Shown here one piece after another: positions 22,149-61,818 of a DNA stretch of 64,000 nt. Position 1 is the first letter of the stretch, and every line of letters begins with the position of its first letter. The stretch is from Nemertoderma westbladi. Lineage: Eukaryota; Animalia; Xenacoelomorpha. Position numbers and translations under genes: made by a program. The stretch lies in assembly GCA_032718475.1 (NCBI GenBank), contig JAUCBJ010001989.1, positions 4,761 to 68,760 on the forward strand, written 5' to 3'. The notes beneath the pieces were generated by a model. The model saw only the letters and a program-made list of their open reading frames with translations, was not told where the DNA came from and ran no database searches.

Positions 22149-22319
22149 CTCTTTATTTGAGCATCAGAAATGAGTGAATATTGATCGTTATTATTTACAA
22201 TGAATATGGCGATAGTCAATGTGGAAGACACCGGTGTGGCATATTGGCATTCAAATATTCGAGTTTCTATACGTTCCACATTCACAATGTATTCTGTACC
22301 GAAAGCCAATTCCAAAGTC
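22149..22319 (-). CDS. Giant cadherin-like gene, exon 20 (C-terminal part of MAD/SEA-like domain 7); 3' boundary uncertain
   Basis: Acceptor tattcctag, phase 2 matches exon 19; (R)TLELAFGTEYIVNVERIETRIFECQYATPVSSTLTIAIFIVNNNDQYSLISDAQIK; ends at a weak donor ag|gtttgc or reads on to TAA at 22133. Confidence 0.75.
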
Positions 22320-22454
22320 CTAGGAATAGAAAAAAAGGGGCGAATAAAAACAAAGTATATTTAATTTATTATTTTATATTTATTCATTCAATATTATATT
22401 CCTCATTGTAATTAAATATATTATTGGCGACTACCTATACTACTAGCAACATAC

Positions 22455-22731
22455 CTTTCTATTTCGAATCGTTTTTGGTAGGAATCAATAGGAGCGATGT
22501 TGGTATGTATTAGTATACTGGTACTATCTCCACTAAGACCAACCACAACCTGGGCGGGTTCACTTTCTTTGCCCGTATCATCAGTGGCCACTGCTTCTAT
22601 GACATATACTGCACCCTCGTCACTGCTTTGGAACGCTTTCACATTTCTTATCAACCCAGTTTCATACATAATTTCAAATGGTGCTGTATTTGGGTTGTTT
22701 AGAGTGTAGAATATATTATTTGCTCGGGGCA
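22455..22731 (-). CDS. Giant cadherin-like gene, exon 19 (cadherin repeat and start of MAD-like domain)
   Basis: cttcttag|..|gtatgt, phase 1 to 2; NIFYTL..FEIMYETGLI..YVIEAVATDDTGKESEPAQVVV. Confidence 0.9.
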
Positions 22732-22995
22732 CTAAGAAGATAAAATGTAGTATTAGACAAAATATTCTAATAAACTACATATACGTTCGCAGAACACTTT
22801 ATACATGTCGTTTGTAGGCTCTATCTATATCTTACTGTATTTTGCCCAGATTATAATAATTTTGTTGGTAGGCTTAGGGTATTTCGAGCGCCATATTCAT
22901 TTATCAATCAATCCATATAAATTGAAATATTTGAAATTAACTTTAAAACTATTTAGTTCAGTTTATATGAATAACACAATACATGGTTCGATGCA

Positions 22996-23825
22996 ACTAC
23001 TACTACGATCGGCATGCTGCATTGCAGCTGCATTATATATATCTTACATATATATTAAGAAGGCTGTGCCGACTTGTCGACGAAATTGCGCCGCCACAAC
23101 TCCCTATCACCCATGACATTTGCTAGATCATCCGCATATTCATGGCCAGTGTCTTTAAAGATGCGTCTCAAGAACGTTATGGGCTGTCCACCAAGCTTAC
23201 TCGCTCCATGAGGGCGCCAAAGCACGAGATTATGCACTGGCTGGTCATCACGGCGAAAGCAATGTCCTGCAAAGCGGGGGCGGTGCCGTTCAAGTGTCAA
23301 GCTATGGGAGATTAATGGAACTCCTCCAATTTTGTATAGAGTCTGATTGGAGATGTGTTCATTGTACTTCACAAAATGAACACGGCGCAACGTTCTTGTG
23401 AATGTGCCATCCAGAGATTTGGTATCCTCTGCAGTTAGAGCCCAGCAGCATGGACTCCCATATAAGAGAACTGGTACTACTACTACCATAAATAATCGAA
23501 CCTTAAGGTTCCGTTGTATTCTATGGGACTTCCAAATCCTAGACAGACTATTTAACGCTGCCCATGCCTTCCCCTTACGTATCCGAAGGTCTTCACCTGA
23601 CTTTCTGATCCATGATCCCAAGTAGCAGAAGTCATCCACGTGCTCAGCAAGCCGTCCCTAGAGCTTATGGCCTTACGATCAGACATTTATTGAGGGCTGT
23701 CAAGGTTCACTGTCATACTTTTGGTCTTCTTGGAGATTACAAAAAGACAAACACTAGAAGCAACCTCGTCCAATGAGCAGAGGAGCCTTTGGGCTCCCTC
23801 TAGTGATTCTAACAGTACCCCTAAG
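22996..23825 (-). mobile_element. Degenerate 5'-truncated RTE-like LINE, same family as 37213-38420
   Basis: DDFCYLGSWIRKSGEDLRIRKGKAWAAL..RFAGHC; shared 3' end GATCGGCATGCTGCATTGCAGCTGCA (+ strand) and (TAG)n tail; indels upstream. Confidence 0.9.
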
Positions 23826-23936
23826 TGGTACTGTCAGTAGTAACCTAAATAATACCCTAGACAATGATTTTTCGTCAATAGACTCACCCCACCCCCCCCC
23901 CCCCCCCCCCGTATTAGAATTGTGTTTCTTACTCAC

Positions 23937-24098
23937 CCAACAAATCAGAATCAACCGCTGATAAACGGATTACGCTGCTGTAGGCTGGCGACATTATCTG
24001 CATGGAACCAACGTAGGGAATATTTTCAGCTGGAAATACTGGCGGTGCGTCATCCACATTGGTAACTATGACAACCAATTGAGCGACATCGCGTACCA
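23937..24098 (-). CDS. Giant cadherin-like gene, exon 18 (cadherin linker); absent from the ORF track
   Basis: cccatcag|..|gtgagt, phase 1 to 1; VRDVAQLVVIVTNVDDAPPVFPAENIPYVGSMQIMSPAYSSVIRLSAVDSDLL contains NVDDxPPVF and AxDxD motifs. Confidence 0.92.
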
Positions 24099-24807
24099 CT
24101 GATGGGAATAAAATAATGTTATATAAGTTATAAGTTATAAATATTAATTATTAATTTTCAATATTTAATTTAATAAGTCTGGCAGTTCGTTTCCAGCTAC
24201 TCATTTTAACTATCGTATACGTAAAATCTTATAATATCGCTTTCTCGCAAATAATTTAACCTTCGGGTATAACGCCCCCTAGCGGTGTCCTGGATAACCG
24301 CCTAGTGATAAACGTTCTCATAAAAAGGCAACCAATGCTGCAGTACATATCTGCTAAATTTTAGTTTGAAAAGTCTGAGTCTGATTGTGTAATTTCTGGA
24401 GCGGTTTTGCCACTCCAGCTAACCGAAATAATTGCCCAAATGAATGTAAAATACACAGTATAACAATAACAAAATAGCCCAAATTTATTACATATTACGC
24501 ATTCACGCAAACATTAAATTATAAACGCGTGAAACAAGGCTCAAGATAGCGACGGTTCATGCCCCCCTACGGATTTCCCAGGACAGTATACAGATGGTCT
24601 GCGTAATGTAAGTACTTGGTTTAGTATCTATTCTGGTGTACCGAAACAGGCCTAAATCCTATGCTGAGTCCAATGGACGCTGCTACTGAATTATGGATAC
24701 TCACATTGACCCGTCATATAAAGTCACCTACCGTAAGTTATACGTACATTATACGCCTCCTGTCCTCCGGGATTATATTATATCGAATTGCAATAATTTT
24801 GTATTAC

Positions 24808-25019
24808 CTGCACCGTCCCGCAGTGCGATAGATAATGAATATTCTTTCCCACTTTCATAATCTAAAGACTTTTTGAGAACAACTTGGTTATTGTCTATAT
24901 GGAATATATTGAAAGGGTTTCCATTGGATATCTCGTAGACGGACCCGGTAGGTGGGTCGGGTAGTTTATCGCCGATCGGTTTGTCAGTGCTAACAGACTC
25001 GGGTACGTGAATCATTCCT
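24808..25019 (-). CDS. Giant cadherin-like gene, exon 17 (cadherin repeat)
   Basis: ttttgcag|..|gtaata, phase 2 to 1; IHVPES..YEISNGNPFNIFHIDNNQVVLKKSLDYESGKEYSLSIALRDG. Confidence 0.92.
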
Positions 25020-25302
25020 CTGCAAAATGTACAAAATTATTATTCTAAGGTCGGGGAAAAAATAGACGGAAAACAAATTATAAAGGTAGTATAAAGGTCT
25101 TACTGTAGTATAAATTTTATAAATTTTATAAAGTTTCTCATGAGAACGGCTGAGCGAATAATAGTTGCTAAAGAAAGAAAATATAAGGGTTTCACATATA
25201 AAGGTAGCATCAAAGAGGGTACACAATTAAGCAACACATATTTTAATTTAGTTTAATTAAATTAATTAAACTAATACGATAATACTAAATGCAATAACGA
25301 CA

Positions 25303-25945
25303 ATGGCCTTAGACCTACAAAAACATCCGATCCCGGCAGTAGCTATATTAAATTCTGCTTCACAAGTTAGGCCTGATGTGTGTAGGTTCTTCTACTGGCT
25401 CAAGTCCTACCTGTCAAAAAGAGGTCAAACTGTAGTCGTTAGCAAAATACAGACTATTGTACAAAAATTAGCCCGTGGTGTCCCGCAAGTTAGTATATTT
25501 GGTCCCCTACTTTTCGTATGCTATGTAAATGATATGATAGATCTCGATTTTCCAACCGGTTTACAGGCCGACGAGAGTGCTCTTATTTTCTCTCATACAG
25601 ATCCTGTCCATATTTCTCGATGGTTAAGTGGAGTACTACAACACTGTGGTGCGTGGTTTGTTTAAGCTATCCTTTCACTACGGTAATACGTAATGTATTT
25701 TTTTTGGATCCAAACGAAAGTAAAAATATGTGAATAAGTTCGAAGACATTTGTGAGTAGTTTGAAGTGGATTAAGCATGGTGAAAAATATTTTCTCGAAA
25801 GTTAACAGTAAACTTAAGTTACTTTTCAGAACTATAAATAGTGTAAATACCGATTTCTCACAAGTTGCTTTGCTCTTCTTTAATACAAAATCATCTAGAA
25901 TATGCCTGCAATTCTTGGTAGGAAGGCTTAACCAAACACCAATGT
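25303..25945 (+). mobile_element. Degraded CR1/L2-type LINE reverse transcriptase fragment
   Basis: WLKSYLSKRGQTV..GVPQVSIFGPLLFVCYVND..ADES; later KVNSKLKLLFR..SLIQNHLEYACNSW with stops and frameshifts. Confidence 0.8.
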
Positions 25946-26194
25946 AAATTCCAATTACGGTTTAAGTGTGATTTATGATATGTACTTCATGCAAATAGAT
26001 ACATATTTTTCTTGGGGTCTGGACAAATTTTAATTAATTTCGTTTTATATCAGTTTTATAGCTTGAATAATAATGTATTTGTAACCAAGTAACATAAAGG
26101 ACCCCCTTGGAAATAAGCTGCAAATATTTAGAGGTAATCCTATAGGTTATGTTGGACAGACAATAGCTACTGTATATACATTGTTTGGTGTATT

Positions 26195-27085
26195 GACCCC
26201 CCCTTTCGTCACAAATCGTCACGAAATGGCTACCCCCCCTACCCCCCTCCCCTATGTCACGTCACACTATATAAAATTAAATGATTACTCTTATAATATT
26301 AGAACAATAAATCTGGAATAAATTTGTCAACTATAAACTATAGCTATAATGCTCCCATGGGCACGACAGGTGGTCTATAATGCTTATAATGGCCATTGGT
26401 CTATCAGCTACTGGGTGTGGGTTCGCAGGGGATTGATAATCAAAAAGGGTTTTGGAACTACCGCTAACTTGAAGGGATATAAGATTTTTAGTAAAACTTT
26501 CGATGCAAAGTAAAGATGACATTCTTTACAAACACAATCTCTAATTTTACCAATTATGGAAGGGCAGTAGAGGTTGTAAGGTAAGATTTTAAGAGACAGG
26601 GGGGAAACTGGACGCAAAACCCGCCTTGGCGAAAATATCCCGCCTCAATGTTAAATTCTCAATTTAGGGAAAGGAGGAGGTTACAGTGGCACGTTATTTT
26701 AACCAAAACAATAAACTAAGCACAATAGAACAGGTTACAGTTTTATTTTTGAGAATAATCAGCTGTTATTTGCGTCCAATTTCCCCTGGAGCGGGATTAA
26801 TATTTATTACGTCCATTCCTCCCCCCCCCCCCCCCCCCCCCACATGGAGTTTTAATGGTTGTCATTGGAAGAGGTAATCGTTTAATAGTAAACACGTTAA
26901 TAGTATACACGTTTAATAAGTATACAAGTATACACGTTATGTATTTAATATACAGTAATTTTATCGGAAACTTATAATGTGACGTCACGATATTGCGGGC
27001 ACCCCCCCTCCCCCTCGTCACAAATCGTCACGAAATACCAAACCTCCTCCTCCCTGTCCAGCGTGACGTCATTTATGGATGACCC
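26195..27085. mobile_element. Truncated DNA transposon relic (Zator- or PIF-like terminus)
   Basis: Right end CGTGACGTCATTTATGGATGACCC; direct repeat TCGTCACAAATCGTCACGAAAT at ~26206 and ~27015; internal degraded minus-strand PYNLYCPS..CVCKECHLYFAS; left end missing. Confidence 0.55.
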
Positions 27086-27279
27086 TTTATTAGACATTAT
27101 AGTCACACGAAAAATGCTAAAATATAAGATATACGAAATTTTGTTTTGATTGTATTTCTATAATGTTTTTTTTGATTGCAGTGAAAAATGAGTTTGCGGA
27201 TCTCATGCGCTTTTGGGGTGCATTATAATATTATTGATTTTCGTCAGTTGAAAGATGATATACCCAGAGATTTACTAAC

Positions 27280-27507
27280 AGGAATATTATTCCATTGGTG
27301 TCTTGTGATACACAAGGTTGGTTCACTGCATCCTTGAACAATGTAATATCGAGTGGTTGTTTGCCAATAACCTTTTCCATACTCTGCACGATATCATCTT
27401 TCCAACCCGGCACGTTTTCTTCAGTCGATGTGAAATGATCCACCAAATTGGTCACCAAGTCGCATGATGTGGCTGTGCAGCTCACCCCGTGCATCAAAAT
27501 CATTACC
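27280..27507 (-). CDS. Giant cadherin-like gene, exon 16 (C-terminal half of MAD-like domain 6)
   Basis: ttttgaag|..|gttagt, phase 2 to 2; VMILMHGVSCTATSCDLV..PCVSQDTNGIIF; joins exon 17 in frame. Confidence 0.8.
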
Positions 27508-27673
27508 CTTCAAAAAATGTGTTTTAATACTAGTTATCTTTATATATAGATACAGCTCCGGTCAGGGTAAAATATTCTAGGACTTAAAATCCAAACATTA
27601 AGTAAACACACCCACATATAAATATATAATACATCATATATATCTTTTATCCTACAATTATTTGAAACACTAC

Positions 27674-27858
27674 CTGGATGGATCTGGTATGTTGCATTCC
27701 GTATCGTAAACTGGAAGTATTCGATCTATGGACATTGATGTGAGCGCGAAATTAGTCTGAAGTATTTCTTCCAGGGCAGTTTGATGGTTCATTACATCAG
27801 TTGGTGTAGCTCCGGACAATTGAAATTGAACTCTGTCAGCTTCAGTAACGACTAAAAT
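27674..27858 (-). CDS. Giant cadherin-like gene, exon 15 (N-terminal half of MAD-like domain 6)
   Basis: tttgcatag|..|gtagtg, phase 0 to 2; ILVVTEADRVQFQLSGATPTDVMNHQTALEEILQTNFALTSMSIDRILPVYDTECNIPDPS. Confidence 0.88.
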
Positions 27859-28054
27859 CTATGCAAAAAAGAAAATGCATTAGATATTAGGTACTTCCAT
27901 TTTACTCGCCTTTCTAACATGTGGGGCATAATTTCTAGACAAATCACTTCCAGGCTAATTTATTAGGCATAAATCTGGCGATGGTCTAGTTCGGTTAGAT
28001 TCTCTTGCAATTTACCTGTTTTCTAGAAGAAGGCACTATAACTATGAAAATACG

Positions 28055-28388
28055 TGAGGTGGTCAGTGTGTGTTGTAGAACTATGTGGTGGTCAGTGTAT
28101 GTGGTAGAACTATGTGGTGGTCAGTGTATGTGGTAGAACTATGTGGTGGTCAGTGTGTGTGGTAGAACTATGTGGTGGTCAGTGTGTGTGGTAGAACTAT
28201 GTGGTGGTCAGTGTGTGTGGTAGAACTATGTGGTGGTCAGTGTGTGTGGTAGAACTATGTGGTGGTCAGTGTGTGTGGTAGAACTATGTGGTGGTCAGTG
28301 TGTGTGGTAGAACTATGTGGTGGTCAGTGTGTGTGGTAGAACTATGTGGTGGTCAGTGTGTGTGGTAGAACTATGTGGTGGTCAGTGT
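28055..28388. repeat. 29-bp intronic minisatellite, ~11.5 copies
   Basis: GTGGTGGTCAGTGTGTGTGGTAGAACTAT, near-perfect copies; abuts the exon 14 donor. Confidence 0.97.
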
Positions 28389-28395
28389 TACTTAC

Positions 28396-28587
28396 CCAAA
28401 CTTTTGCGGTGTCCACCTTCTCTGCCTTTTCGTAAAGATCCACATCAAAATTATACGATTTTCCTGAATTATTTTCCATAGAGGTTATTAGATATATATT
28501 TCCATTGACAGGATTCAAACTAAAGGAACTGGATAAAGATGAACCATCAGCTAATTTGTAGGAAACATCGATAGTTGGAGTTGTCAC
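28396..28587 (-). CDS. Giant cadherin-like gene, exon 14 (cadherin repeat)
   Basis: tttatgtag|..|gtaagt, phase 0 to 0; VSYKLADG..FSLNPVNGNIYL..SYNFDVDL..DTAKVW. Confidence 0.92.
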
Positions 28588-28696
28588 CTACATAAAAAAT
28601 ACAGGTATATGGATATCTAGTGTTGTTGAAGAGCAATAACCGCAGATGAGGTTGAAGTAGAACCACTTGGATTTGAACCTGTTAAAACTTAACACC

Positions 28697-28763
28697 TGTA
28701 CCTGGATTCGAACCTGACATCTCTTACAATCCATGTGGTAACTCTCTTCCACTCAGCTCCCCA
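28697..28763 (-). mobile_element. tRNA-derived SINE head fragment
   Basis: Minus strand shows A box AGCTGAGTGG and B box GGTTCGAATCC at tRNA-like spacing; no clean cloverleaf. Confidence 0.55.
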
Positions 28764-28945
28764 TAATATGAAATGATCACAAACTTTGATGGCCTTGAAA
28801 GGAGAGAACAACACGGGTTAGCCATCAGAAAAACTATAAACTTAGGCTAAGCCCCAAATGACCAGGGTTAATATATTAAACCACATCTCATTCATTTCCA
28901 TCTTTAGTGATACCGGTACACATTAAATAAAACTGCAGTAACATA

Positions 28946-30339
28946 CCAGGTGTTCCACAATGTCACAGAATTAAAAATCTGTATTTCCTCCATTTGCATT
29001 GCGAAAAGTAGACACTCATCTGGGAAAAGTTGATATAAGTTTCTCTGCCATCAGCCACACTTTCCAGCACAGAATTCAGGTGTTGTTTGAGTACAACTTA
29101 TTTCATATCGTATTTTATATCGGTATTTTATATTGGTGCAATATAGAGGTGCCTTGGGTAATCCTTTGTCCAGCTGATGAGGTGTCGATATTACCGCGTA
29201 CTGGGTCTCAGACACCGAAACGCAACCATATTTTTGATAAAATTAATTATTTTTGCCCTAGTCCTACCCCTTTACGGCGACAAAATGTCATATATTTTTC
29301 CATAGAATATAGGCTTAGCTTTTGTGCAGTTTACTACCGGTATCATTTAGTGTATGGCGGTTAGGTTAGGGTTAGGGTGCGATACATACTTGTATGTTGA
29401 GCATGGTTTAATATATTTGTTTTTTGTTTATGTCATTCTTATTTGTATTGTTTGTGTTGTTTTTTGATGGCCTTAGGGCTGAGTACTACTTTGGGCGTAA
29501 TGTTTTGATTCTATGTTTTTTGTTAGTTTGGAGGGTATAAGACTCTAGGCTCTTACAATTAGATTTTATATCGGGTTGTTCCATCGGCTTTTCCATCTTT
29601 TCATTACTTTTGACTTTGCCACGATTAAGAAACATTTCTTTTTAGATGCCCGCGCTACTGATTTCTTAGGGCGGCCTGCACGCACACTCAGCAAGAATAT
29701 CCTTAAATTCTTGTGAAAAAGAAAATGGTCTTCCAGTTGTTTTCACCTTCCGGCAATTATGTGGATCTCGATTCCTAGTTTCGCTTTACAAAATCTTCAC
29801 TACGCATTACAGCATTATCTTCCCCGCGATCCACTTCCTTGATATTTGCACACCATTTGCCACAGAATCACGAGACTCTCTAAAAGAAACAGCTCTGATG
29901 CTATCAACCCAACCATACGCATTTCTTCAGAGTCATCGAAGATTGCACTGGAACTTGTGATTTTAATTACTTCTGTTAGGCCTAATTCAGTAAAATTAAC
30001 AAAGAAACACTAATACCGGTAACCTAATACTGTAATATATTGCAATACAGCAAAAGTCAGGCAGTAATAACGATTTAAACAGGGCTGCAAAGCTGATGAC
30101 TAACGCTGGATAAATTATATTTTTTTTTTTGTGATTAAATCAAAAATATTGAAAAATAAGATAGGTTTAACGAATTGCCTATAAAATTGTTTTACTTTAG
30201 TATTGGATCATCAATTTTTGCATGCTCAAAATTAAATTCTCTTTCGAATGGTATATTACACTAAGGTGCATGTCTGGCAGTTTTGGTTGGCCAGTGGGGG
30301 GGGGGGGGGGGGGGGGGGCAATCATTATGGAACACCCGG
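28946..30339. mobile_element. Non-autonomous Tc1/mariner-type element with probable nested insertions
   Basis: TA|CCAGGTGTTCCACAATG ... CATTATGGAACACCCGG|TA: 17-bp TIRs with 2 mismatches and a TA duplication. Confidence 0.65.
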
Positions 30340-30498
30340 TATAATACAGAAAAAGGCTAGGCCGACTGATTTATTTATTTACCTTCATGTAATCGATTTT
30401 TCGCGCCTCCGTAGGCAAACATACAAAATACACTTCCTCGGGACTCTGATTTTAATAACGAAATAATTATAATATAATTATTCCCCCTTTCCTTACTC

Positions 30499-31567
30499 AG
30501 TCGTAATATTTATCTCAAAATATTCGACGCAATATTCATCCCGAAAATATTCACCAAAATATTCTTCTAAGAATATTATCCCATATCTCACATTATGATT
30601 TATTGCCCCAACCCAGACATCCTTAGTCGTGGCGGGCGTGTCATCCTTGCCTGATCCGCCCAATACACTCCATCCAATGCACTATCCAGGGTCCATTGTT
30701 ATGCAATACACCCCTTCCCTTACACCGGCCCCCAGCACGCAGCCTATGGCCGCCACCCAATAGCAGTAGGAAGTGATTGACAAGTCACCTTCAAAACTCC
30801 ATCCAGGCACCAATATTAATTGGTCTATATTATTGAGTAATTATATTTAACATTATTTGAACGTAAAGTCTCTGCCTAGAAAGTCCACCCGCGCGCAGGT
30901 GATAATTTTGGGTCAACTCCATATTGACCCCACAGCAGGCTATAAATAGGGGCGCATCGGGACTAAAACTTCAAGAGTTTTCACTCTGCCTCAGGCATAA
31001 CTGTTGAGCCCTGCTCCTCAGTACAGCAGAGGTCCCTGGCCTAGAAGTCAGCTCCTCTGTTCCGAGTTGGGGCCATCTTTGTTGCTGGATCGGGCCTGCG
31101 GAAGGCATTGCGGTCGACAGTAACTTAAGACGATTCCGCCGTTGGTCGGCTGTACTATCTGGCCTAAAAGCCAGCTCTGTTCCAAGTTGGGGCCCTCTTT
31201 GTTGCTGGGTCGGGCCTGTGAAAGGCTTTGCGGTCGCCAGTAACGTAAGACGATTCCGCCGTTGGTCTGAGCACATTGGCTAGACAAGCCCGGAGCGCTT
31301 GTGTGCTCGCTATTGCCTACCAGGCAAAAGTGGCAGCGTCTCCACCGATTCGGCTCTCCTGCCCACGGTAGTGCTGGTGCACTGTCCGCAGGCTATATGT
31401 TTATTTGTGGTTCGCCCGAATAAACCTCTATGGTCTGAGAACAAATTGCAGCTAACCTTTTAAGTCCAATCGGTACCACCCCTGTTTGGACTCAGACGGC
31501 AACCTGCTGTTCTGCACTATCGCCAATAGTTCCAATAGCGTGAAGCTGCACCAAGTTTATTACGACT
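30499..31567 (+). mobile_element. Solo-LTR-like element
   Basis: GC-richer island bounded by perfect 10-bp inverted ends AGTCGTAATA/TATTACGACT; TATAAATAG at 30941; AATAAA at 31418; internal 120-bp-period duplication; no target-site duplication seen. Confidence 0.5.
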
Positions 31568-32535: not shown

Positions 32536-32663
32536 CTGAACACTGGCAATATTTGTATAAGCAGGTGTATCACTAGATATTCCAAATATGTAGGGGTATA
32601 GGGACTTCTCAAAGTTTGGTGAGTCCTTTACAAGTACAACCGTTGCAATTGTCCTGGAAAGAC
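32536..32663 (-). CDS. Giant cadherin-like gene, exon 13 (cadherin linker)
   Basis: tattttag|..|gtaaga, phase 1 to 0; LSRTIATVVLVKDSPNFEKSLYPYIFGISSDTPAYTNIASVQ. Confidence 0.9.
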
Positions 32664-33921: not shown

Positions 33922-34130
33922 CTGTATTGGTATCCAAGATAAAATTCAAAACATGATTCGATGCGACATCGTAATCCAATGATTTAATCAAGGAAATCTT
34001 TCCATTGTTATCGACATTGAATGTGTCGCTTGTAGGGTCTATATGGTAACCTTCTATAGACGGGTTGGTTGGTAGTTGACCTATCACAGTTCCCGGGGAC
34101 TCATTCTCTTTAACCGTTATCTCTGGAGAC
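33922..34130 (-). CDS. Giant cadherin-like gene, exon 12 (cadherin repeat)
   Basis: atttcaag|..|gtatgt, phase 2 to 1; ITVKENESPGTVIGQL..FNVDNNGKISLIKSLDYD. Confidence 0.9.
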
Positions 34131-36875: not shown

Positions 36876-36945
36876 TATTAGTTAGAAATGAATGAACCCA
36901 GAAATGTACACAATAAATTACTTGTAATGCATAATATATACTTAC

Positions 36946-38420: not shown

Positions 38421-38454
38421 GTATTATATGTGAATGTATTATATGTGAATGTAC

Positions 38455-49900: not shown

Positions 49901-52900
49901 AACTCTGTAGCATCAAAACAGTTAACTTCTTTCATCAAAACAATTGAATACCCGTTTAGAGCAAAATAATTGTTCTTCAGATCTGGATTTATGAGATTAA
50001 CTAAAGGCACTTTCCCTTTAAAGATAGTTGATATGTCCAATAATGATTTTAATGGAGATGCATTGTCTGGAATAGACATTTCAGCATGGAATGACGGAAT
50101 ATCACAGCAAGGTTTCTTTGGAAGTTTGGTTGTACATGGAGTTGGTGTTGGTGTGGTTGAAGTTATTGGACAAGAAGATGCTCTATATGTGGTTGGACAA
50201 GATACTGGTAGTGAGGATACGGGAATATTTTCACATTTAATATTAATCTTCACTGATCCATAGCCCCTACAGTTTAAATTTTCAAAAGATAGTTGAAGAT
50301 ACATGTCTATTATATCGTAACATTCGAGTTGATTAACAATCATTAGTTGGTATGAATCCATTAGAAAGTAATCATTTTTTGGATCTCTGTTCCAGATCTT
50401 TATAGTTGTATGCGAGCCATGAAAATACTTAGCAAAGTTATAAATAAGTGATGGTACTCTATCAATCTGACCATATATTGTCAATTCAGCATTGATTGTT
50501 GGTATTATGCAGCACTTTCCTGGAAGTTTTGTTGTACAAGGAGTTGGAGTGGGTGTGGTTGCAGTAATAGGACATGAAGTTGCTCTATATGTAGTTGGGC
50601 ATGATACAGGTGTAGTTATAGTTGATATTTCGATGCAGTCTATATTTATATTCACTGAACCATAACTGTTGCAGTTATTATTGGTAAATTTCAGTTGTAA
50701 ATATAACTCTTTCATAACAGAACAGTCAAGTTCTTTTATCAAAACAATTAAATACTCATTTAGAGCAATATAATTGTTCTTTGGATCTGGATTTATGAGA
50801 TTAACTAGAGGAACTTTCTCTTCAAAGACAGTTGATAAGTCAAATAATGATGTTGCTGGAATTGTATTGTCTGGAATCGATAACTCAACATGGAGTGAAG
50901 GAATATCACAGCATGGCATAAGGGGTTTTGTTGCACAAGGAGTTGGAGTAGGTGTGGTTGCAGTAATAGGACATGAAGTTGCTCTATATGTAGTTGGGCA
51001 TGATACAGGTGTAGTTATAGTTGATATTTCGATGCAGTCTATATTTATATTCACTGAACCATAACTGTTGCAGTTATTATTGGTAAATTTCAGTTGTAAA
51101 TATAACTCTTTCATAACAGAACAGTCAAGTTCTTTTATCAAAACAATTAAATACTCATTTAGAGCAATATAATTGTTCTTTGGATCTGGATTTATGAGAT
51201 TAACTAGAGGAACTTTCTCTTCAAAGACAGTTGATAAGTCAAATAATGATGTTGCTGGAATTGTATTGTCTGGAATCGATAACTCAACATGGACTGAAGG
51301 AATATCACAGCATGGCATAAGGGGTTTTGTTGCACAAGGAGTTGGAGTAGGTGTAGTTGCAGTAATAGGACATGAAGTTGCTCTATATGTAGTTGGGCAT
51401 GATACTGGTGTAGTTATAGTTGATATTTCAATGCAGTCAATTTTTATATTCACTGACCCATAACTGTTGCAGTTATTATTGGTAAATTTCAGTTGTAAAT
51501 AAAACTCTGTAGCATCAAAACAGTTAACTTCTTTCATCAAAACAATAAGATACTCATTTAGAGCAAAATAATTGTTCTTTGGATCAGGGTTTATGAGATT
51601 AACTAGAGGAACTTTTCCTTGAAAGACTGTTGATATATCTAATAATGGTATTGATGGAGATGTATTGTCTGGAATAGATAATTCAGCGTGGATTGATGGA
51701 ATATCACAGCAAGGCTTTGGAAGTTTGGTTGTAAAAGGAGTTGGTGTTGGTGTGGTTGAAGTTATTGGACAAGAAGATGCTTTATATGTGGTTGGACAAG
51801 ATACTGGTAGTGAGGATACAGGAATATTTTCACATTTAATATTAATCTTAATTGCTCCATAGCCCCTACAGTTTAAATTTCCAAAAGATATTTGAAGATA
51901 CATGTCTGTTATATCATTACATTCGAGATGTTTAACAATCATTAGTCGGTATGAATCCATTAGAAAGTATTCATTTTTTGGATCTCTGTTCCATATCTTT
52001 ATGGTGGTATCCGATCCAGAAAAATATTTAGCAAAATTGTACAATAATGAGGGTACACGTTCAATCATACCATTGATTGTCAATTCAGCATTGAGAGTTG
52101 GAATTGCACAGCACTTTATTGGAAGATTAGTTGTACACGGAGTTGGTGTCGGTATGGTTGCAGTGGCAGGACAAGATGTTGCTCTATATGTAGTTGGACA
52201 GGATACAGGAGTAGTTAGAGTTGTTGCCACAACACAGTCTGTAATTACATTTACTGACCCATAACTGTTGCAGTTATTGTTGAAGAATTTAAGTTCCAAA
52301 TATAATTCTTTATTATGAAAACAATCAAGTTCTTTAATCAAAACTATTAAATAGTTATTTAGAGCAAAATAATTTTTCCTTGGATCAGGGTTTATGAGAT
52401 AAACAGAAGGCAGCTTTCCAGTGAAAAATGTTGAAATGTCCAATAATGATGTTGCTGGAACTACATTGTCTGGAATAGATAATTCAGCATGGAGTGAAGG
52501 AATATCACAGCATGGCCTAGGAAGTTTTGTACTATATGGAGTTGGAGTAGGTGTGGTTGCAGCTATAGTACAAGGAGATGCTCTATATGATGTTGGACAA
52601 GATACTTCTGGCAAAGTTGCAGAAATTAGTTTACACTTAATATTGATCTTTACTGATCCATAACCTATACAGTGGAAATTTGAAAATGAAAGTTGAAGAT
52701 ACATGTCTTCTATATCATTACATTCGAGTTGCTTAACAATCATTAGTCTGTATAAATCTATTTGAAAATATTCATTTTTTGGATCTCTGTTCCATATCTT
52801 TATAGTGGTATCCGATTCAGGAAAATACTTAGCAAAGTTATAAATAAGTGATGGAACACGAACAATCTGACCATAAATTGATAGTTCAGCATTGAGAGTT

Positions 52901-55900
52901 GGTATTATGCAGCAATTTCTTGGAAGTTTTGTTGTACATGGAGTTGGAGTTGGTATGGTTGCAGTAATAGGACATGAAGTTGCTTTATATGTAGTTGGAC
53001 ATGATACAGGAGTAGTTATAGTTGATATTTCAATGCAGTCTATATTTATATTTATGAACCCATAACTGTTGCAGTTATTGTTTGCAAATTTAAGCTGTAA
53101 ATAAAATTCTTTTGTAACATAACAGTTAAGTTCTTTCATCAAAATAATTAAATACTCATTTAGAGCAAAATAATTGTTCTTTGGATCAGGATTTATGAGA
53201 TTAACTAGAGGAACTTTTCCTTGAAAGACGGTTGATATGTCAAATAATGATATTGATGGAGATGTATTGTCTGGAATAGATAATTCAGCATGGAGTGAAG
53301 GAATATCACAGCATGGCCGGGGAAGTTTTGTTGCACAAGGGGTTGGAGTAGGTGTAGTTGCAGTAACAGGACATGAAGTTGCTCTATATGTAGTTGGGCA
53401 GGATACTGGTGTAGTTATAGTTGATATATCCATGCAGTCTATATTTATATTCACTGAACCATAACTGTTGCAGTTATTATTGGTAAATTTCAGTTCCAAA
53501 TAAAACTCTTTTATATCAGAACAGTCAAGTTCTTTTGTTAAAACAATTAAATACTCATTTAGAGCAAAATAAATGTTCTTGTGACCAGGATTTATGAGAT
53601 TAATAAGGGGAACTTTTCCTTTAAAGACAGTTGATATGTCCAATAATGATATTGATGGAGATGTATTGTCTGGAATAGATAATTCAGCATGGAGTGAAGG
53701 AATATCACAGCATGGCCGAGGAAGTTTTGTTGTACAAGGAGTTGGAGTTGGTGTGGTTGCAGTAATAGGACATGAAGTTGCTCTATATGTGGTTGGACAT
53801 GATATGGGAGTAGATACAGTTGATACTTCAATACAGTCTATATTTATATTCACTGAACCATAACTGTTGCAGTTATTATTATTGGTAAATTTCAGTTGTA
53901 AATAAAACTCTTTCACATCAAAACAGTCAAGTTCTTTCATCAAAATGATTAAATGCTGATTGAGAGCAAAATAATTATTTTTTGGATCAGGATTTATGAT
54001 ATTAACAAGAGGAACTTGACCATTAAAGATTGTTGATATGTCTAATAATGATATTGACAGAGATGTATTGTCTGGAATCGATAATTCAGCATGAAGCGAA
54101 GGAATATCACAGCATGGCCTAGGGAGTTTCGTTACGCAAGGAGTTGGAGTAGGTGTGGTTGCAGTAATAGGACATGAAGTTGCTCTATATGTGGTTGGAC
54201 ATGATATGGGAGTAGATACAGTTGATACTTCAATACAGTCTATATTTATATTCACTGAACCATAACTGTTGCAGTTATTATTATTGGTAAATTTCAGTTG
54301 TAAATAAAACTCTTTCACATCAAAACAGTCAAGTTCTTTCATCAAAATGATTAAATGCTGATTGAGAGCAAAATAATTATTTTTTGGATCAGGATTTATG
54401 ATATTAACAAGAGGAACTTGACCATTAAAGATTGTTGATATGTCTAATAATGATATTGACAGAGATGTATTGTCTGGAATCGATAATTCAGCATGAAGCG
54501 AAGGAATATCACAGCATGGCCTAGGGAGTTTCGTTACGCAAGGAGTTGGAGTAGGTGTGGTTGCAGTAATAGGACATGAAGTTGCTCTATATGTAGTTGG
54601 ACATGATACAGAAGTAGTTATAGTTGATATTTCCATGCAGTCTATATTTATATTCACTGAACCATAACTGTTGCAGTTGTTATTGGTAAATTTCAGTTCC
54701 AAATAAAACTCTTTTATATCAGAACAGTCAAGTTCTTTTGTTAAAACAATTAAATACTCATTTAGAGCAAAATAAATGTTCTTGGGACCAGGATTTATGA
54801 GATTAACTAGGGGAACTTCTCCTTTAAAGACAGTTGATATGTCCAATAATGATATTGATGGAGATGTATTGTCTGGAATAGATAATTCAGCATGGAGTGA
54901 AGGAATATCACAGCATGGCTGGGGAAGTTTTGTTGCACAAGGAGTTGGAGTAGGTGTGGTTGCAGTAATAGGACATGAAGTTGCTCTATATGTGGTTGGA
55001 CATGATATGGGAGTAGATACAGTTGATACTTCAATACAGTCTATATTTATATTTACTGACCCATAACTGTTGCAGTTATTATTATTGGTAAATTTAAGTT
55101 GTAAATAAAACTCTTTCACATCAAAACAGTCAAGTTCTTTTGTTAAAACAATTAAATACTCATTTAGAGCAAAATAAATGTTCTTGGGACCAGGATTTAT
55201 GAGATTAACTAGGGGAACTTTTCCTTTAAAGACAGTTGATATGTCCAATAATGATATTGATGGAGATGTATTGTCTGGAATAGATAATTCAGCATAGAGT
55301 GAAGGAATATCACAGCATGGCTGGGGAAGTTTTGTTGCACAAGGAGTTGGAGTAGGTGTGGTTGCAGTAATAGGACATGAAGTTGCTCTATATGTAGTTG
55401 GACATGATACTGGAGTAGTTGTAGTTGTTGACTCAATGCAGTCTACAATAATATTTACTGATCCAAAGCTGTAGCAGTTATTGTTAGAAAATTTAATTTG
55501 CAAATAAAACTCTTTGGTCTCAAAACAGTTAAGATTCTTCACCAAAACTATCATGTAGTCTTTTAGAGTAAAATAAATAATTTTTGGCTCCGTGATTAAG
55601 AGATAAACTGAAGGCAGGTGTCCTTGAAGAGCTGCTGATATGTCAAATAATTGCGCTGGTGGATTTGTATTTTCTGAAATAAAGATTTTAGCACTGAAAG
55701 AGGGAAGGTTACAGCAGCTAATTGGCAAATTTGTTGGACATGGAGTTGGGGGAAGCATTGTAGGCAAAACCTCAAATGCAGGACAAATCAATGGACAGAT
55801 AGGTCGCAGCAGCACTTCAGAAATAGATATTGGAAATCGATCAGGTTCTAGAATATTACTACTTTTTAGTGCATCTTCAAGTTGATTACTAGTAGCAAGC

Positions 55901-58473
55901 TTCTGGTTTGATCTATCAATTGCAGTCAAAATAACTGCATTGGTAGACAACAATGGATTACATTCGTTATCATAATGTTGCTTTATTGCATATATAGCTG
56001 TATTATATGAATTAGTAATTTCAGCATTTATAGCAGCTAAAAATTCACGCTCATTTGATGCAATTTCATCTCTACCTTCATTTGTAAGCAATATTAATTG
56101 GAATTCTTCATTTGTTACACACATATCAATCATAACCGTATTGCTTTCTGAAGTTCCAATATCTGTAGCTTTGGCTTCACATTGGAAGCAATCGCCTTTT
56201 AGTGTTGTAATATAATCTGAGGTTCGCAATATGCCAGATGTTTTTTCAATAGCAAATAATGAACATTCAGTTGAGCTTTGTAGACTATATTCTGTTTTTC
56301 CATTGCCAACTTTATCAACATCACTTGTAGTTAGTGCTGCTATAAAACTATGTGGAGGTAAACAAGCATCAAAAATAAATTGATAAAGGCCTTCAAATTG
56401 TGGTGGATTATCATTTGTATCCAGAATGTTAATGTCAATAATAGCTATAGATATGCATAATTCACCAATTAGATTTATTTTAATTGTATGCCTATTCTTA
56501 ATTTCATAATCAGAACCTTTTATATCAATAGCTTTATTGCGAACTACAAAGTTATCAAAATCATTTCCACCATCAACTTTTTCAATTGTAATACTTTGCA
56601 AAGAAGCCAAGTTATCAAAATCATGCACTTCAACAAATTGTGTGTTTTCAGTTACTTCTGCAGTTTCATATAACCCATGGCACCAGTCTGGAAGTGGAGA
56701 TGCACACAGAGTGGCGCATTTTGCTGCATCATGATGGTCGATGTAATTCAAACCATTATCAAGGAGTTCTTTAGTTGTATCAGTCAGATCACTGCTTAGT
56801 ATTGTATATATCTGTTTGGAGGACATCAGTACATACTTATCACTGGAAGTAAAATCACCTAAACGTACTGCAGTAAATTCAACAGTGGTTTCACCAGCTT
56901 TGGGGTTACAACTTTGGTCATAACGTAAAGCTACATTTGTAATCATAATGTTGCGAAATGATTCTAAACTTAATGTACGCGAAAGTATTTGTTTTACTTC
57001 AGATATCGAATTTTCAACATCTTTTAGTGGATTATTGAAATGCACACCAGCCACATTTGCATCAGTGTAAATACAAAGATTAGCATTTGTATTTTTTGTG
57101 TGACCATTGGCATCCACAACCTGTGGTGAGCATAATTTGCATATACCAATGTCAGTTGAATCAGCCTCACTATCCATACGAACCATACCTGTACTCCCAT
57201 GCACAGAAAATGGTAAACAATTTGGTAAACTGTAAGTAAGAGTATCTTTAGGATCAACATCTTGGGCAACAAGTTTAACAACATCAGTTCCCAATTTATC
57301 ACATTTATTAGCAACACCAAAAAATGTATTCTCAGTAAACCGAGGAAATTCATCGTTTATATTTGTCACCATTACAGTCACTGTAGCAAAACGTATACAA
57401 TGCTGTAACAACACTTTAACACTAAGAACGTATTGAATTTCACCTGTATCAAAGTCAAGTGGAGAAAGTGTTACAATTTTATTTGGACTTTCTACACCAA
57501 ATAAACCTTGTATGTCCCCTTTAACAATTTCAATTTCAGTTACACCTTCTATATTTATAATTCCAACTTCAGAATCAGCACTATTTTCTACTACATTGAA
57601 TGTTTCATAAATAGCATCTGAAAAGATACATGATAACATTGGAGTTGTAGTAGGGCACTGTACTGGCTCAGCTGTTGTCATTATTTCATAATAATTTATA
57701 TTTATATTCACTGACCCATAACTGTTGCAGTTGTTGTTGGTGAATTTAAGTTGCAAATAAAACTCTTTAGTATCATAGTAGTCAAGTTCTTTGTTCAAAA
57801 ATATTATATAGTCCTCTACAGCAAAATAATTGCTCTTTGGATCTGGGTTTATGAGAAAAACTGAAGGCAGTTTTCCTTGAAAGACTGTTGATATGTCCAA
57901 TAATGATGTTGCTGGAACTGTGTTGTCTGGAATAGATAATTCAGCATGGAGTGAAGGAATATCACAGCATGGCCTAGGAAGTTTTGTTGCACAAGGAGTT
58001 GGAGTAGGTGTGGTTGCAGTAATAGGACATGAAGTTGCTCTATATGTAGTTGGACAAGATACTGGCGCATGTGTTGTTGATATCATTATTTGACATGCAA
58101 TGTTGATCAGCAGAGATCCATGCTGAAGGCAATTTCCTTTTTCAAATGAGAGTTGAAGATAAATTTCATTAACATTATGGCAATTAAGATCTCTTACAAG
58201 AACCAGTCTATTGAAATCTATTTCAAAGAAGTCGTTTTTAGGATCTCCATTACCTATATTTATAGTTACATCAGATTCCGATATATAGTCACCAAAATCC
58301 AAGATTGTAGATAGCGCATAACTGTCAGGCACATTCAGTTCAGAGTTCAGTGTAGTCATGCTGCAACAGTTGGGTGGTTGGGAGGTTGGGCATGGTGTAG
58401 GTCCAATCACGGTCTCTGGTGCTGTGATGCTCACTACCAAATACCCACTTCTTATTGGGTCAACAGTCTCTGC
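40932..58473 (-). CDS. Giant cadherin-like gene, exon 4: 17,542-bp exon with ~35 Thr/Pro/Cys plus degenerate-cadherin units and four cadherin-cadherin-MAD modules
   Basis: Uninterrupted frame; acceptor aattttag|GCA (phase 0), donor CAT G|gtaagt (phase 1); cadherin motifs VVEN, LDFD, NINDEFPRF, AQDVD, DYE, DTNDNPPQF. Confidence 0.95.
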
Positions 58474-58579
58474 CTAAAATTAATTGGCATGAATTATTTC
58501 CGTAAATCACATTAATAGGATATTAGGTAATTAAAGATTGCACTCGACATACTGACTAACAGGGGGCTATTGTATATAT

Positions 58580-58709
58580 ATATAAAATAAACAGGTAAAA
58601 CCTAGTCTTAAACGTGATTGTTAATATGAGCGTTAATGTCCTGATACTATGTTTTTTGTTGGTTGGTGGGGTTTAAAAGACTCTAGGTTTTACCTGTTTA
58701 TTTGATATA
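58580..58709. mobile_element. Short MITE-like inverted-repeat element
   Basis: AAATAAACAGGTAAAACCTAG..CTAGGTTTTACCTGTTTATTT; internal CTATGTTTTTTGTT..AAGACTCTAGG also occurs at ~29510-29550. Confidence 0.65.
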
Positions 58710-60003
58710 AGGATATTAGGTGAAATATTACTATACACATTTTAATGGAGTATCGAGTACATAATGGCTATAAAATATATTACTGTATTATAATCTAAAT
58801 AGTAGCACTTCATTCATTCATTACTTCAGAGTATATTTCTTAGTAAAATCCTCCAATCAGCAATCAGAAAGCAGCATAGCCACACTGTAAGCTTTGAGAA
58901 TAAGGCACATTAATTAGGTATTGTGAAGTTGCATTACAACTGTATGGTTGACTTTTCAATAGGTACCGGTATGTTATGATAATATGGTATGTTATGTTAA
59001 TATTCTAATAGAATATTTTTTTGTTGTATCTTTTACTTTCAATACTGTATACGAATAATACTACTAGCTATCATAATAACTATTTATATTTCGTTATTCA
59101 CTGAATTAGAAATAAATTTTGAGTCAATTAATATAATTATTACATCGCCCATGTGAAGAATTTGTGTTTTCACTTTTATTGTTTTTGGTTAGATGCAGCC
59201 CTTCTGAAACCAGTGGTTTTATTGAAAACCTGGTATTCTTCACATGTGGGTAAACTGCAAATTAAAAAATATAACAGCAGACATTCTGGTATACTTCTAT
59301 GGTGGCACTGAAGGGCCAACAATGAATGTTCCGTGCGCCACGACTTGTTACATGAAACAACTCGACAGAAACTACTCGTCTCGGAAATTTGAGATAGTAT
59401 TAACTTTAGAATAAATATATATATTGCTACAAATTTGCAATACCATATTTGGATACTCTGAACAGTTCCGATGCTGTAATGGTAGTGTATCGGTAAAGAC
59501 CATATCAGTGGCTGCCTACACCAAACCGAATCATACCTCTGCATTGGTATCATAGTTCTGAGAAGAATACAAGCAACTATTAAATTGTTTCAACATATCA
59601 CACATACAACTAAAGTATTACGTCCGAGCGTTCTGGTAATGGACAGTAGGGTGGTGAATTTTTTTAATTTTTTTTTTCGATTTCATTGTTCTACCGGTGT
59701 TTGAAAAGTAGTTACAAGAAATAAAGTACCATTTAGCTACCTACAGTACTGTATAGTGTTGAATTGAATTGAATTGAGTTTTCGTATGTGATCACACGTT
59801 GGCAACGTTGGTTATGTGAAAAAGTTGCCAAATGGTAAAAAAATATATTTCTCTCAATTTCAACTATACTTCGGATCATCCCAAGGAGGTTAAAATTTTG
59901 AGCATTCGTGTTGCACCACGATGAAAGTTATAACAATGTAACACATTGATGAAAGATCAATGACTCAGGAAAGAAGATCCTGCATGCATCAAATGTCATC
60001 CAA

Positions 60004-60230
60004 TGTATGGGGTGCCATGGGCTTCGAAAAATATGAAAATGTCGGCGACTGGTTTAGATTTCGGCTTCGATTTCGGCTTAGATATTTAAGCCAACCTCTA
60101 AGCCGAAATCTAGGCCGAAATCTAGGCCGAAATCTAAGCCGAAATCTAGGCCGAAATCTAAACCAGTCGCCGAGAATCTAAACCATTCGCCGACATTTTA
60201 ATATTTTTGAAGCGAATGGCGGCCCATACA
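60004..60230. mobile_element. Nested MITE with internal 12-bp tandem repeats
   Basis: TIRs TGTATGGG..ATGTCGGCGA..GGTTTAGATT and AATCTAAACC..TCGCCGACAT..CCCATACA; (RGCCGAAATCTA)n in both orientations. Confidence 0.8.
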
Positions 60231-60405
60231 AATGGGTCCACAGTTTGTTAGATACAAACATTTTCATTTTGAGATCATGGGAACTAGTGCCACAGGCACA
60301 AGGCCAGAACCTGCCCCTGGTGCTGCAAGTGACTCACATTCTCCATTTTTGTGATCGACTACTTCTCGTTCTCCTACTGCATTGATATTATGCTTATTTG
60401 AACCA

Positions 60406-60561
60406 CAATGATCAATTTAGTGGGGTTAGACGCATTCAAATTATATAGTAGTGATTAGTTCTCTAGTTTTTGTACAAAATGTCTGGAATGGGTGTACAAA
60501 AATTCAAGAACTAATCACTCTACTCTTGTTTTGAAGGTGTCTACACCCACATTGAGCATTG
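60406..60561. repeat. Degenerate ~155-bp palindrome
   Basis: AGTGATTAGTTCT..TTTTTGTACA and TGTACAAAAA..AGAACTAATCACT, with matching outer arms. Confidence 0.7.
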
Positions 60562-60861
60562 CTGAGTGTGTCTATTCTTTATTCCTTGAGATAATTCGAA
60601 TTCAAATTTGGCACACCAGTAGAACAATGATATTGAAAAAATAAAAGATGCACCACCCTAGAGACTAGGACTAGGACAGAATACATTAAGAATACTATTA
60701 CTATCATGCTGTTAAATTAAATATGCCTTATACCAACAATGAATTAACTTTATTTCACAGCGCATTGAATGCCCACTTGAAAATAAATTATTATTATGTT
60801 ATTTATGTACATTCTAGTAGATATTCCTACAGAAGCTTTTCTTCAACTTTGTTCAACACAC

Positions 60862-60959
60862 CTTTACAGTTAGAGCAACATCATTGATTAAGACCTCATT
60901 GATAGTTATTTCTCCGCTGTTTTCTTGAATTTCGATTCCTGTTGTATCAGTTGGAAATA
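60862..60959 (-). CDS. Giant cadherin-like gene, exon 3
   Basis: tgtttcag|..|gtgtgt, phase 1 to 0; FPTDTTGIEIQENSGEITINEVLINDVALTVK joins AETVDP of exon 4. Confidence 0.85.
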
Positions 60960-61189
60960 CTGAAACAATTTAATAAATAAATATATACATATAATACACA
61001 TTTTATAGAATCAAATATGCTTGCTACTCATGAACTCTTCAAAACTATTATTGCCCTAATATCCAATATTTATTACACTGCATACTGCAAATAAGGCACA
61101 AAATCTATACATTTGAAATTCGATCACATCCATTCACTCAAATTGGATTCACCCACATGAAAAATGGATTATTTGTGCGGTCCACTTAC

Positions 61190-61332
61190 CTGAAGCAATA
61201 GAATATTTGACTCCACTACCATTAGCTTTGATTTCCGTAACCGTATCACCAGTTGTTAAACTTGTGTACTTGTCAACGTTTATGGGAACTTGCGACGACT
61301 CATCATATATTGCTACATAGCTTATGGAGCAC
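61190..61332 (-). CDS. Giant cadherin-like gene, exon 2
   Basis: tatttcag|..|gtaagt, phase 2 to 1; CSISYVAIYDE..GDTVTEIKANGSGVKYSIAS. Confidence 0.88.
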
Positions 61333-61442
61333 CTGAAATATTAAAAGTTATCAATTATAGCACGTATAATATGCTATCAGATCAGTTCCTGACATCTATA
61401 GATAAGTTATGTTATATAGTGCTTAAGTATAATTAGAACATT

Positions 61443-61692
61443 AATAATAATAGTTATTATTATTATTTATATAGCGCTTTTCTACACTCTTCAGACTCAA
61501 AGCGCTTTTATTATTTACCCCAGCAAAGCCAGGTTCCCATTATACCGCCGGGTTGGCGTAAGCACTAATGTCTAAGGGGCTCTTGACTAGGGACACAGCA
61601 GTGCGAAAATTCTACAGCTTTTAGTCGGATTCGAACCTGCACCACCAAACACTTTTGTGTAAGCAGTTCAGGCGCCATATCCACTCGGACAA
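61443..61692 (-). mobile_element. tRNA-derived SINE with L2-like tail
   Basis: Minus strand: GTCCGAGTGG (A box), GGTTCGAATCC (B box), TGTGTCCCTAGTCAAG core-like motif, tail AAGCGCTTTGAG..AAAAGCGCTATATAAA(TAA)n. Confidence 0.82.
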
Positions 61693-61711
61693 TACACATT
61701 GCAGCACATAC

Positions 61712-61818
61712 CGTAATAAACCACTTGGACATGTTCCAAACTGGAGCGTCAATGTTTCATCCCCTGGTTCTTGAATGTTAATCGTAACTGATGTTGTAGC
61801 AGTGTTACCAAAGGAATC
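61712..61818 (-). CDS. Giant cadherin-like gene, first exon visible in the window (an internal exon; gene continues upstream)
   Basis: gaaaacag|..|gtatgt, phase 0 to 2; DSFGNTATTSVTINIQEPGDETLTLQFGTCPSGLL resembles the last strands of a cadherin domain. Confidence 0.82.

Follow-up and report, generated by a model that had tools for sequence, protein, structure and literature searches.

A stretch of 64,000 nucleotides (nt) of Nemertoderma westbladi DNA (assembly GCA_032718475.1, contig JAUCBJ010001989.1, forward-strand positions 4,761 to 68,760; called here the window) carries on its minus strand part of one gene for a giant protein of the cadherin superfamily. A sequence-only reading had proposed that 20 exons between positions 61818 and 22149 join in frame to encode about 7,000 amino acids (aa). 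These exons have AG/GT ends, agreeing phases and no stop codon, and they sum to exactly the claimed 20,939 nt when the acceptor downstream of the giant exon lies at 40662, a position fixed from a spliced contig of sequencing run X5. The size was also right, but two further in-frame exons flanking the 20, at 63940-63871 and 21118-21008, had been overlooked; both have AG/GT ends, fit in phase and are stop-free. The resulting model has 22 exons in the window and encodes 7,039 aa (about 777 kDa), a lower bound because both ends are open. Its giant exon begins a stop-free minus-strand frame of 5,861 codons (58473-40891). The product consists of extracellular cadherin (EC) domains, membrane-adjacent domains (MADs) and short Thr/Pro/Cys linkers; a linker with one EC-fold domain is called a unit, and EC-EC-MAD a module.

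21008-63940, minus strand: the partial gene, 22 exons, from splice ends, phases and frame and partly from X5 contigs
63940-63871, 61818-61712, 61332-61190, 60959-60862, 58473-40932, minus strand: exons 1-5
40662-40383, 39279-39092, 38675-38455, 37092-36946, 35831-35695, 35405-35196, minus strand: exons 6-11
34804-34703, 34130-33922, 32663-32536, 28587-28396, 27858-27674, 27507-27280, minus strand: exons 12-17
25019-24808, 24098-23937, 22731-22455, 22319-22149, 21118-21008, minus strand: exons 18-22
63871-63940, minus strand: the extra upstream exon, predicted from AG/GT ends, phase and lack of stops, encoding the C-terminal half of an EC-like domain (weak EC profile score, 7.5 bits)
40932-58473, minus strand: the giant exon, an open frame of 17,542 nt (5,847 codons) that encodes four EC-EC-MAD modules, 34 units in full and the beginning of unit 35
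21008-21118, minus strand: the extra downstream exon, predicted, completing MAD7; it may splice from a donor at 21008 or at 20978, or run into a stop codon near 20975

Units were counted by the Cys-Cys pairs that mark 133-135-aa repeats. There are 35, in blocks of 2, 20 and 13, with a 36th linker running into module C and gaps of 751 aa at the paired modules. The order is 2 units, 2 modules, 20 units, 2 modules, 13 units and 3 modules, in agreement with the sequence-only reading, and amounts to about 51 EC-fold domains, 36 interleaved linkers and seven MADs (five distinct), six of them internal. In the arrays and modules the ECs stand singly or in pairs, never more than two linked, and form no continuous calcium-linked chain, again as proposed. 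The accompanying view, of a protein unlike a conventional cadherin, has to be adjusted: near-canonical calcium-linker motifs are present in four of the five distinct EC-EC pairs (A, B, C and E) and absent in D. The cadherin superfamily is marked by two or more tandem ECs of seven-stranded Greek-key fold. The Pfam Cadherin model scores above its threshold in each half of the giant exon as well as in exon 25019-24808, and the Protein Data Bank (PDB) sequence matches of the paired ECs are protocadherins. A Pfam match to Resistin (E 1e-24) was rejected as repeat-inflated, being the sum of many 33-aa matches over a third of the model. The domains, in the order of the protein, are as follows.

58411-63939, minus strand: N-terminal divergent EC-like domains, aa 1-160, across exons 1-5, from the EC profile (7-10 bits, highly divergent)
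57652-58410, minus strand: units 1-2, Thr/Pro/Cys linker plus EC without calcium motifs
55786-57651, minus strand: modules A and B, each EC-EC-MAD (MAD1, MAD2), from Pfam, PDB sequence matches and profiles
47794-55785, minus strand: units 3-22, 133-135 aa each; units 10, 12, 16 and 19 are a divergent subtype
45928-47793, minus strand: modules A' and B' (MAD3, MAD4), lying 3,286 codons from A and B, whose protein sequence they match at 94% identity
40532-45927, minus strand: units 23-35
34714-40531, minus strand: the 36th linker and module C (EC-EC-MAD5), spread over small exons
27285-34713, minus strand: module D (EC-EC-MAD6), its EC-EC linker without calcium motifs
21010-27284, minus strand: module E (EC-EC-MAD7), the most CDH23-like and likely the true membrane-adjacent end

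Run X5 is labelled 'DNA?' yet carries spliced contigs and was used as transcript evidence. One contig of 1,280 nt joins 40932 directly to 40662 with CT..AC ends, a GT-AG intron on the gene strand, and the 1,280-nt contig of this run has a loose end after 40383 made of the first bases of exon 39279. The DNA runs X1-X3 are continuous across the same 40662-40932 intron. A second X5 contig, of 1,887 nt, contains exons 22475-22731 and 27280-27506 spaced by exactly 374 nt, which is the sum of the two intervening exons and so supports those junctions. The model predicts 1,885 nt for this contig and 1,255 nt for the first, so that both lengths fit the remaining exons. The X5-tiled interval takes in 15 of the 21 junctions (two shown directly, three by exact spacing and ten by total length only); the other six, four upstream and two at the 3' end, are predicted from sequence only. 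Because the contigs tile this interval, the 3' end of the giant exon is spliced to the three downstream modules, and the gene is transcribed as modelled from there to exon 22731-22455. Over most of the giant exon there are no X5 contigs, which is uninformative either way. Runs X4 and X6 contributed no further evidence. X5 has a 3-base in-frame insertion at 40567, in exon 40662-40383, and differs from the window at 0-2.5% of exon bases; it therefore comes from another individual or strain.

The gene is real, transcribed and under selection. The ratio of nonsynonymous to synonymous change (dN/dS) has a median of 0.39 across 562 of 595 unit pairs, the other 33 being left out for dS under 0.02 or saturation. 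The two blocks of paired modules give dN 0.030 versus dS 0.074, a ratio of 0.41, and all length changes among the repeats preserve the frame. The repeats are thus under purifying selection, with dN/dS about 0.4. These two blocks differ by 74 changes in 640 codons, about 4% of bases, against the 0-2.5% that separates X5 from the window, and no single contig spans the giant exon, where short-read contigs mix alleles of both copies. The second pair of modules and some of the units could on these grounds be an assembly artefact, a falsely joined haplotype or mis-expanded repeats. We regard this as very improbable. The frame is open over 17.5 kb, similarity at the 3,286-codon offset stops after about 950 codons with a different unit order beyond, and alleles of both copies are present among runs X1-X3. 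Of 30 bins along the giant exon, 29-30 are covered by runs that come from two studies. Even if the artefact were real, the five distinct modules and the unit arrays would stay; the counts would change, not the design.

The MADs were compared with a profile built from 17 terminal segments of outside proteins and no window sequence. MAD7 scored 26.3 bits and MAD2 13.3 bits, each reached by 0 of 300 shuffles. Scores were weaker for MAD4 (8.3 bits, 3 of 300 shuffles), MAD6 (3.5 bits, 6 shuffles) and MAD5 (1.5 bits, 8 shuffles). Row P0232 among the 17, which was part of this profile and of the one used below on 295 fetched proteins, is probably no MAD and was dropped for leave-one-out tests. With window sequences only, the five distinct MADs recognised each other at 0-8 of 300 shuffles; with the outside set added, all five beat 300 of 300. 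In a single-sequence fold of modules A-B, five of the best nine structural matches to the MAD2 part are PCDH15 or CDH23 MAD entries. By these profiles the seven MADs are one family matching the terminal MADs of CDH23-like cadherins. The ECs of a module are also distinct from each other. A profile of ECs that precede a MAD gives 22-39 bits for the five second ECs and -1 to 4 bits for four of the first ECs (18.7 for E1), whereas the unit profile favours first ECs (3-13 bits) over second ECs (1 or less). Since the second ECs are of the pre-MAD type and the MADs match as a family, each module was likely copied from the C-terminal EC-EC-MAD cassette of a CDH23/PCDH15-type cadherin; the preference of the unit profile suggests that the units derive from a linker and the first EC. 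The SEA self-cleavage motif GSVVV was not seen by eye in the MAD sequences.

A unit consists of a linker of about 39 aa and a 95-aa domain. The linker is 27.5% Thr, 9.6% Ser, 19.9% Pro and 7.1% Cys, so that Thr, Ser and Pro make up 57%, in line with the Thr/Pro/Cys spacers described by the sequence-only reading. Pfam gives no match to the 95-aa domain, and PDB sequence searches with unit and MAD profiles gave nothing significant. In an AlphaFold2 model made from 31 aligned rows the domain is a sandwich of seven strands with a predicted confidence (pLDDT) of 65-86, and the linkers have low confidence. The top Foldseek matches listed for this model are all cadherins (best E 3e-10), and VIA-align superimposes it on CDH23 EC9 with Z 11.5 and a root-mean-square deviation of 2.2 Å over 91 residues. 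In the ESM Atlas the units fall in cadherin clusters under 0.9, as a lead only, and nothing was found for MAD2. The domain is thus predicted to have the cadherin fold, so the cadherin-like calls made from sequence hold for the units by predicted structure and for the MADs by profile.

The EC calcium-linker motifs are named LDRE, DxNDN and DxD. DxNDN-like or AxDxD motifs occur in none of the 35 units, and Cys replaces acidic residues at the LDRE and DxNDN positions. Both of these Cys are lost in units 2 and 22, which are duplicates, so that the paired loss is one event. The Cys of the linker motif PTPC is lost by itself in 8 of 35 units, on several branches. The pattern suggests to us that a disulfide within the domain has replaced the calcium clamp and that the linkers carry spare thiols. 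The residues that replace the PTPC Cys (units 11, 13, 26, 27, 29, 32, 33 and 35) are aromatic in all eight cases, six Tyr, one Phe and one Trp, which may reflect mutation bias or packing.

Taken together, the domains suggest a lineage-specific, probably membrane-anchored, glycosylated and disulfide-braced tether or spacer at the cell surface, a reading to which we give about an even chance. The composition of the linkers suggests O-glycosylation, and the anchor and the disulfide pattern are likewise deduced from the sequence. The last module, with MAD7 and the EC before it, resembles the membrane-proximal end of CDH23-type cadherins. When the extra exon is included, MAD7 can be aligned over 77 residues with the end of CDH23 MAD28, and this alignment suggests a membrane helix downstream; 54 of 1,000 shuffles scored as well, so the pairwise match is not significant. 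Several results count against this interpretation. No signal peptide or membrane helix lies in the 7,039 aa within the window, and a stop just inside the adjoining satellite can be read from the last exon. MAD1 (2.5 bits, 28 of 300 shuffles) and MAD3 (0.8 bits, 102 of 300) do not match the outside profile alone. The structural matches to MAD2 reach only Z 5.0-5.4, tied with unrelated RimP proteins, from a model of mean pLDDT 33, and in a second model, by AlphaFold2, MAD2 again had low confidence. No MAD match for the window MADs came from Pfam, hhalign or a PDB profile search.

The 3' side of the gene ends in a tandem array.

1-21006, no strand assigned: a 40-bp satellite, 526 copies, 87% matches, starting flush with the last exon

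Splicing of the last exon would take place at 21008 or at 20978; failing that, the reading frame would reach a stop near 20975, which lies 12 codons inside the satellite. The satellite is probably intronic and hides the gene's 3' end. Its repeat unit contains a GTAAGT donor-like site on the gene strand (412 occurrences) and no acceptor-like site, and looks like an exon/intron junction amplified to an array of at least 21 kb. The first satellite copy, in frame, encodes a short hydrophobic stretch. The only long non-satellite island of the array, at 15075-15434, contains an inverted repeat of about 275 bp at about 15150-15420 (by eye), possibly a hairpin or an insertion like a miniature inverted-repeat transposable element and not an exon.

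The stop in the satellite and the missing membrane helix bear on a different reading, a secreted matrix, mucus or glue protein that has no membrane anchor and is polymerised through free Cys. The model as a whole has 326 Cys and 26 N-glycosylation sequons, the linkers have the composition given above, and in the 8 of 35 units that have an odd number of Cys one thiol would stay unpaired, all of which would suit such a protein. A GTAAGT donor two bases ahead of the stop, however, permits splicing onward; in the stretches scanned Pfam finds no gel-mucin domain such as VWD or cystine-knot; and MAD7 with the EC before it matches the membrane-proximal end of CDH23-like proteins. We judge the secreted protein unlikely, at perhaps one chance in four. 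The sequence-only reading had named a matrix, adhesive or filament protein; of these a purely secreted matrix is less likely than an anchored tether, because of the match of the last module.

Other repeats lie in the introns. A 29-bp minisatellite (11.4 copies, 99% matches, 28058-28388) follows directly on the donor of exon 28587-28396 and is the second tandem array in the gene that begins at a donor. Reverse-transcriptase fragments of long interspersed nuclear elements (LINEs), presumably of the RTE type, are found on the gene strand (minus) at 37259-38455, 36279-36692 and 23058-23800. The first of these has a 399-codon frame directly after an exon, is 37-56% identical to PF00078 relatives and is very abundant in the DNA runs. 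A degraded frame in the first intron (62531-63222, minus strand) resembles by eye the C-terminal part of a retroelement protein, with no Pfam match. An Rfam search found nothing.

Relatives of the protein are generic cadherins, at 21-37% identity over single ECs among the matches listed. A protein search gave 239 matches among 7,981 candidates, the best 120 all generic cadherins and none an orthologue; another search gave 1,532 matches, the best 150 at 26-32% identity; and the unit region matched none of 7,987 candidates. None of 178 pattern matches in metagenome contigs was confirmed. Two MAD-profile matches of at least 10 bits were found in none of 295 fetched proteins, in a search of low power as the profile finds only three of the seven window MADs.

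The top phmmer match is a Nematostella vectensis protein annotated 'cadherin-23 / protocadherin Fat 4' (XP_048581438-44; P0121/P0269), at 29% identity. Its 40 ECs are grouped in 303-aa triplets, and it has a single MAD and a membrane helix. One form, P0269 (XP_048581438), is 4,407 aa with about 12 near-identical 303-aa EC triplets, and the annotated isoforms differ by whole triplets. Like the window protein, it has a giant ectodomain made by recent tandem duplication, and it ends in a pre-MAD EC, a MAD and a membrane helix; unlike in the window protein, its repeat is an EC triplet without linker, Cys or internal MAD.

In the accessible text of 10.1101/460097, PCDH15, CDH23, PCDH24, FAT and CELSR each have a single MAD, which follows the last EC. 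The cadherins CDH23, PCDH15 and PCDH24/CDHR2 share with the window protein ECs followed by a ferredoxin-like MAD, and the pre-MAD EC and MAD7 align with CDH23 EC27-MAD28. They differ in having a single MAD after a continuous calcium-linked chain of 9-27 ECs, as far as the accessible parts of 10.1101/460097 and PMC8691648 describe them. The window protein has the MAD after a pre-MAD EC but not the one EC chain with one terminal MAD; seven MADs and 35 mucin-spaced ECs without calcium motifs are its own features. Cadherins of the CDH23/PCDH15/PCDH24 type also have a membrane helix and cytoplasmic tail behind the MAD and an adhesive EC1-2 tip at the N-terminus; in the window protein both of these ends would fall beyond the window. 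Fat, Dachsous and CELSR are similarly large and fill the search results, at the identities given above, but they have continuous EC chains, which the window protein lacks, and Fat and CELSR have one MAD followed by EGF/LamG (10.1101/460097, available text); in the stretches of the window protein scanned, Pfam gave no EGF or LamG match. Nor is it built as a mucin, its P/T/S-rich stretches being only about 39 aa each.

Two other systems combine related parts. CDHR5 has four ECs and, next to the membrane, a single mucin-like block of 4 x 31 aa (accessible text of PMC8691648 and 10.1101/2023.02.22.529570), and so resembles the window protein in joining ECs with Thr/Ser/Pro-rich repeats. Its ECs do not alternate with spacers, and it is not described as having a repeated MAD; the window protein in turn is not four ECs plus one block. 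The dystroglycan module is cadherin-like plus SEA-like. Known as IG2_MAT_NU, it occurs twice in arthropods, hemichordates and placozoans and six times in Nematostella, and is the nearest precedent for tandem copying of a membrane-proximal Ig-like plus maturation module beside a mucin-like region (PMC4582122, in the part available). The modules of the window differ in having two true ECs with calcium motifs, and its mucin-like part is 36 short Cys-containing linkers. Dystroglycan, whose layout is IG1-S6-mucin-IG2-MAT-NU with a Gly-Ser maturation site, was compared by Pfam only, which gave no dystroglycan match in the stretches scanned. The layout was not seen in the anemone CDH23 or the ctenophore cadherins in the available text of PMC3899209 and PMC13245172, and neither repeated EC-EC-MAD nor Cys/Thr/Pro-spaced ECs were found in the literature covered, which was mostly open-access text without supplements. 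The claim of an unrecognised architecture therefore held in the searches made, where no characterised family had this layout. By its domains the protein is a cadherin-superfamily member that stands outside each named subfamily whose features were compared. Giant lineage-specific repeat proteins are common in invertebrates.

The likeness to CDH23/PCDH15 and CDHR2/CDHR5 raises a further alternative, a link protein of microvilli, cilia or hair bundles that binds a partner cadherin by its N-terminal ECs, with the repeats setting only length and elasticity. The cassette likely derives from the CDH23/PCDH15 class, the Nematostella match has also lengthened its ectodomain by recent tandem repeats, and CDHR5, in intermicrovillar links, joins ECs to a mucin-like repeat (PMC8691648, accessible part). 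Set against these are an N-terminus beyond the window, N-terminal ECs that are highly divergent where present, and the lack of an orthologue to anchor the comparison. We consider a link protein of this kind rather improbable, less so than an assembly artefact.

For the anchored tether, the gene may have arisen in three steps. First, the C-terminal EC-EC-MAD cassette of a CDH23/PCDH15-type cadherin would have been copied in tandem to give five distinct modules. Second, the linker and first EC of the cassette would have been amplified to 35 units inside one exon. Third, duplication of a block of about 950 codons would have brought the modules to seven. In the protein, disulfides in place of calcium clamps would keep the units folded without calcium, and the Thr/Pro linkers would be O-glycosylated stiff spacers. 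In the accessible text of 10.1101/460097, MAD12 induces parallel PCDH15 dimers and is predicted to be mechanically weak; the MAD-driven dimers and elasticity proposed here are borrowed from that case. The MADs might hold a pair of parallel chains together at seven places, where PCDH15 has the one clamp of MAD12, and might unfold serially as shock absorbers, while spare linker Cys could cross-link the chains. The part in the window would be 0.36-0.61 µm long, taking about 4.5 nm per EC and assuming 3.5 nm per MAD and 3-10 nm per linker.

In its fullest and more doubtful form, which we hold only tentatively, the protein would be a cadherin-derived rope. Two parallel chains would be held together by seven MAD clamps and by interchain disulfides resembling hinges, calcium clamps would be swapped for disulfides in 35 domains, and the result would be a calcium-independent glycosylated filament of about half a micrometre whose MADs unfold one by one. 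If so, the membrane-adjacent domain of the tip link would have been turned into a repeating building block. With its seven MADs in series, the protein lends itself to asking whether EC-MAD cassettes dimerise and unfold by themselves when they are not next to the membrane. The units, for their part, are a natural case of a cadherin-fold domain in which a disulfide seems to have taken over from the calcium sites, and a fragment of 95 residues would be enough to test this. The gene also illustrates that a single cassette can give rise to an exon of 17.5 kb, and the lack of an orthologue in large protein collections implies that such genes may be under-annotated. To a cadherin specialist, seven serial MADs and a calcium-to-disulfide swap in 35 domains would come as a surprise.

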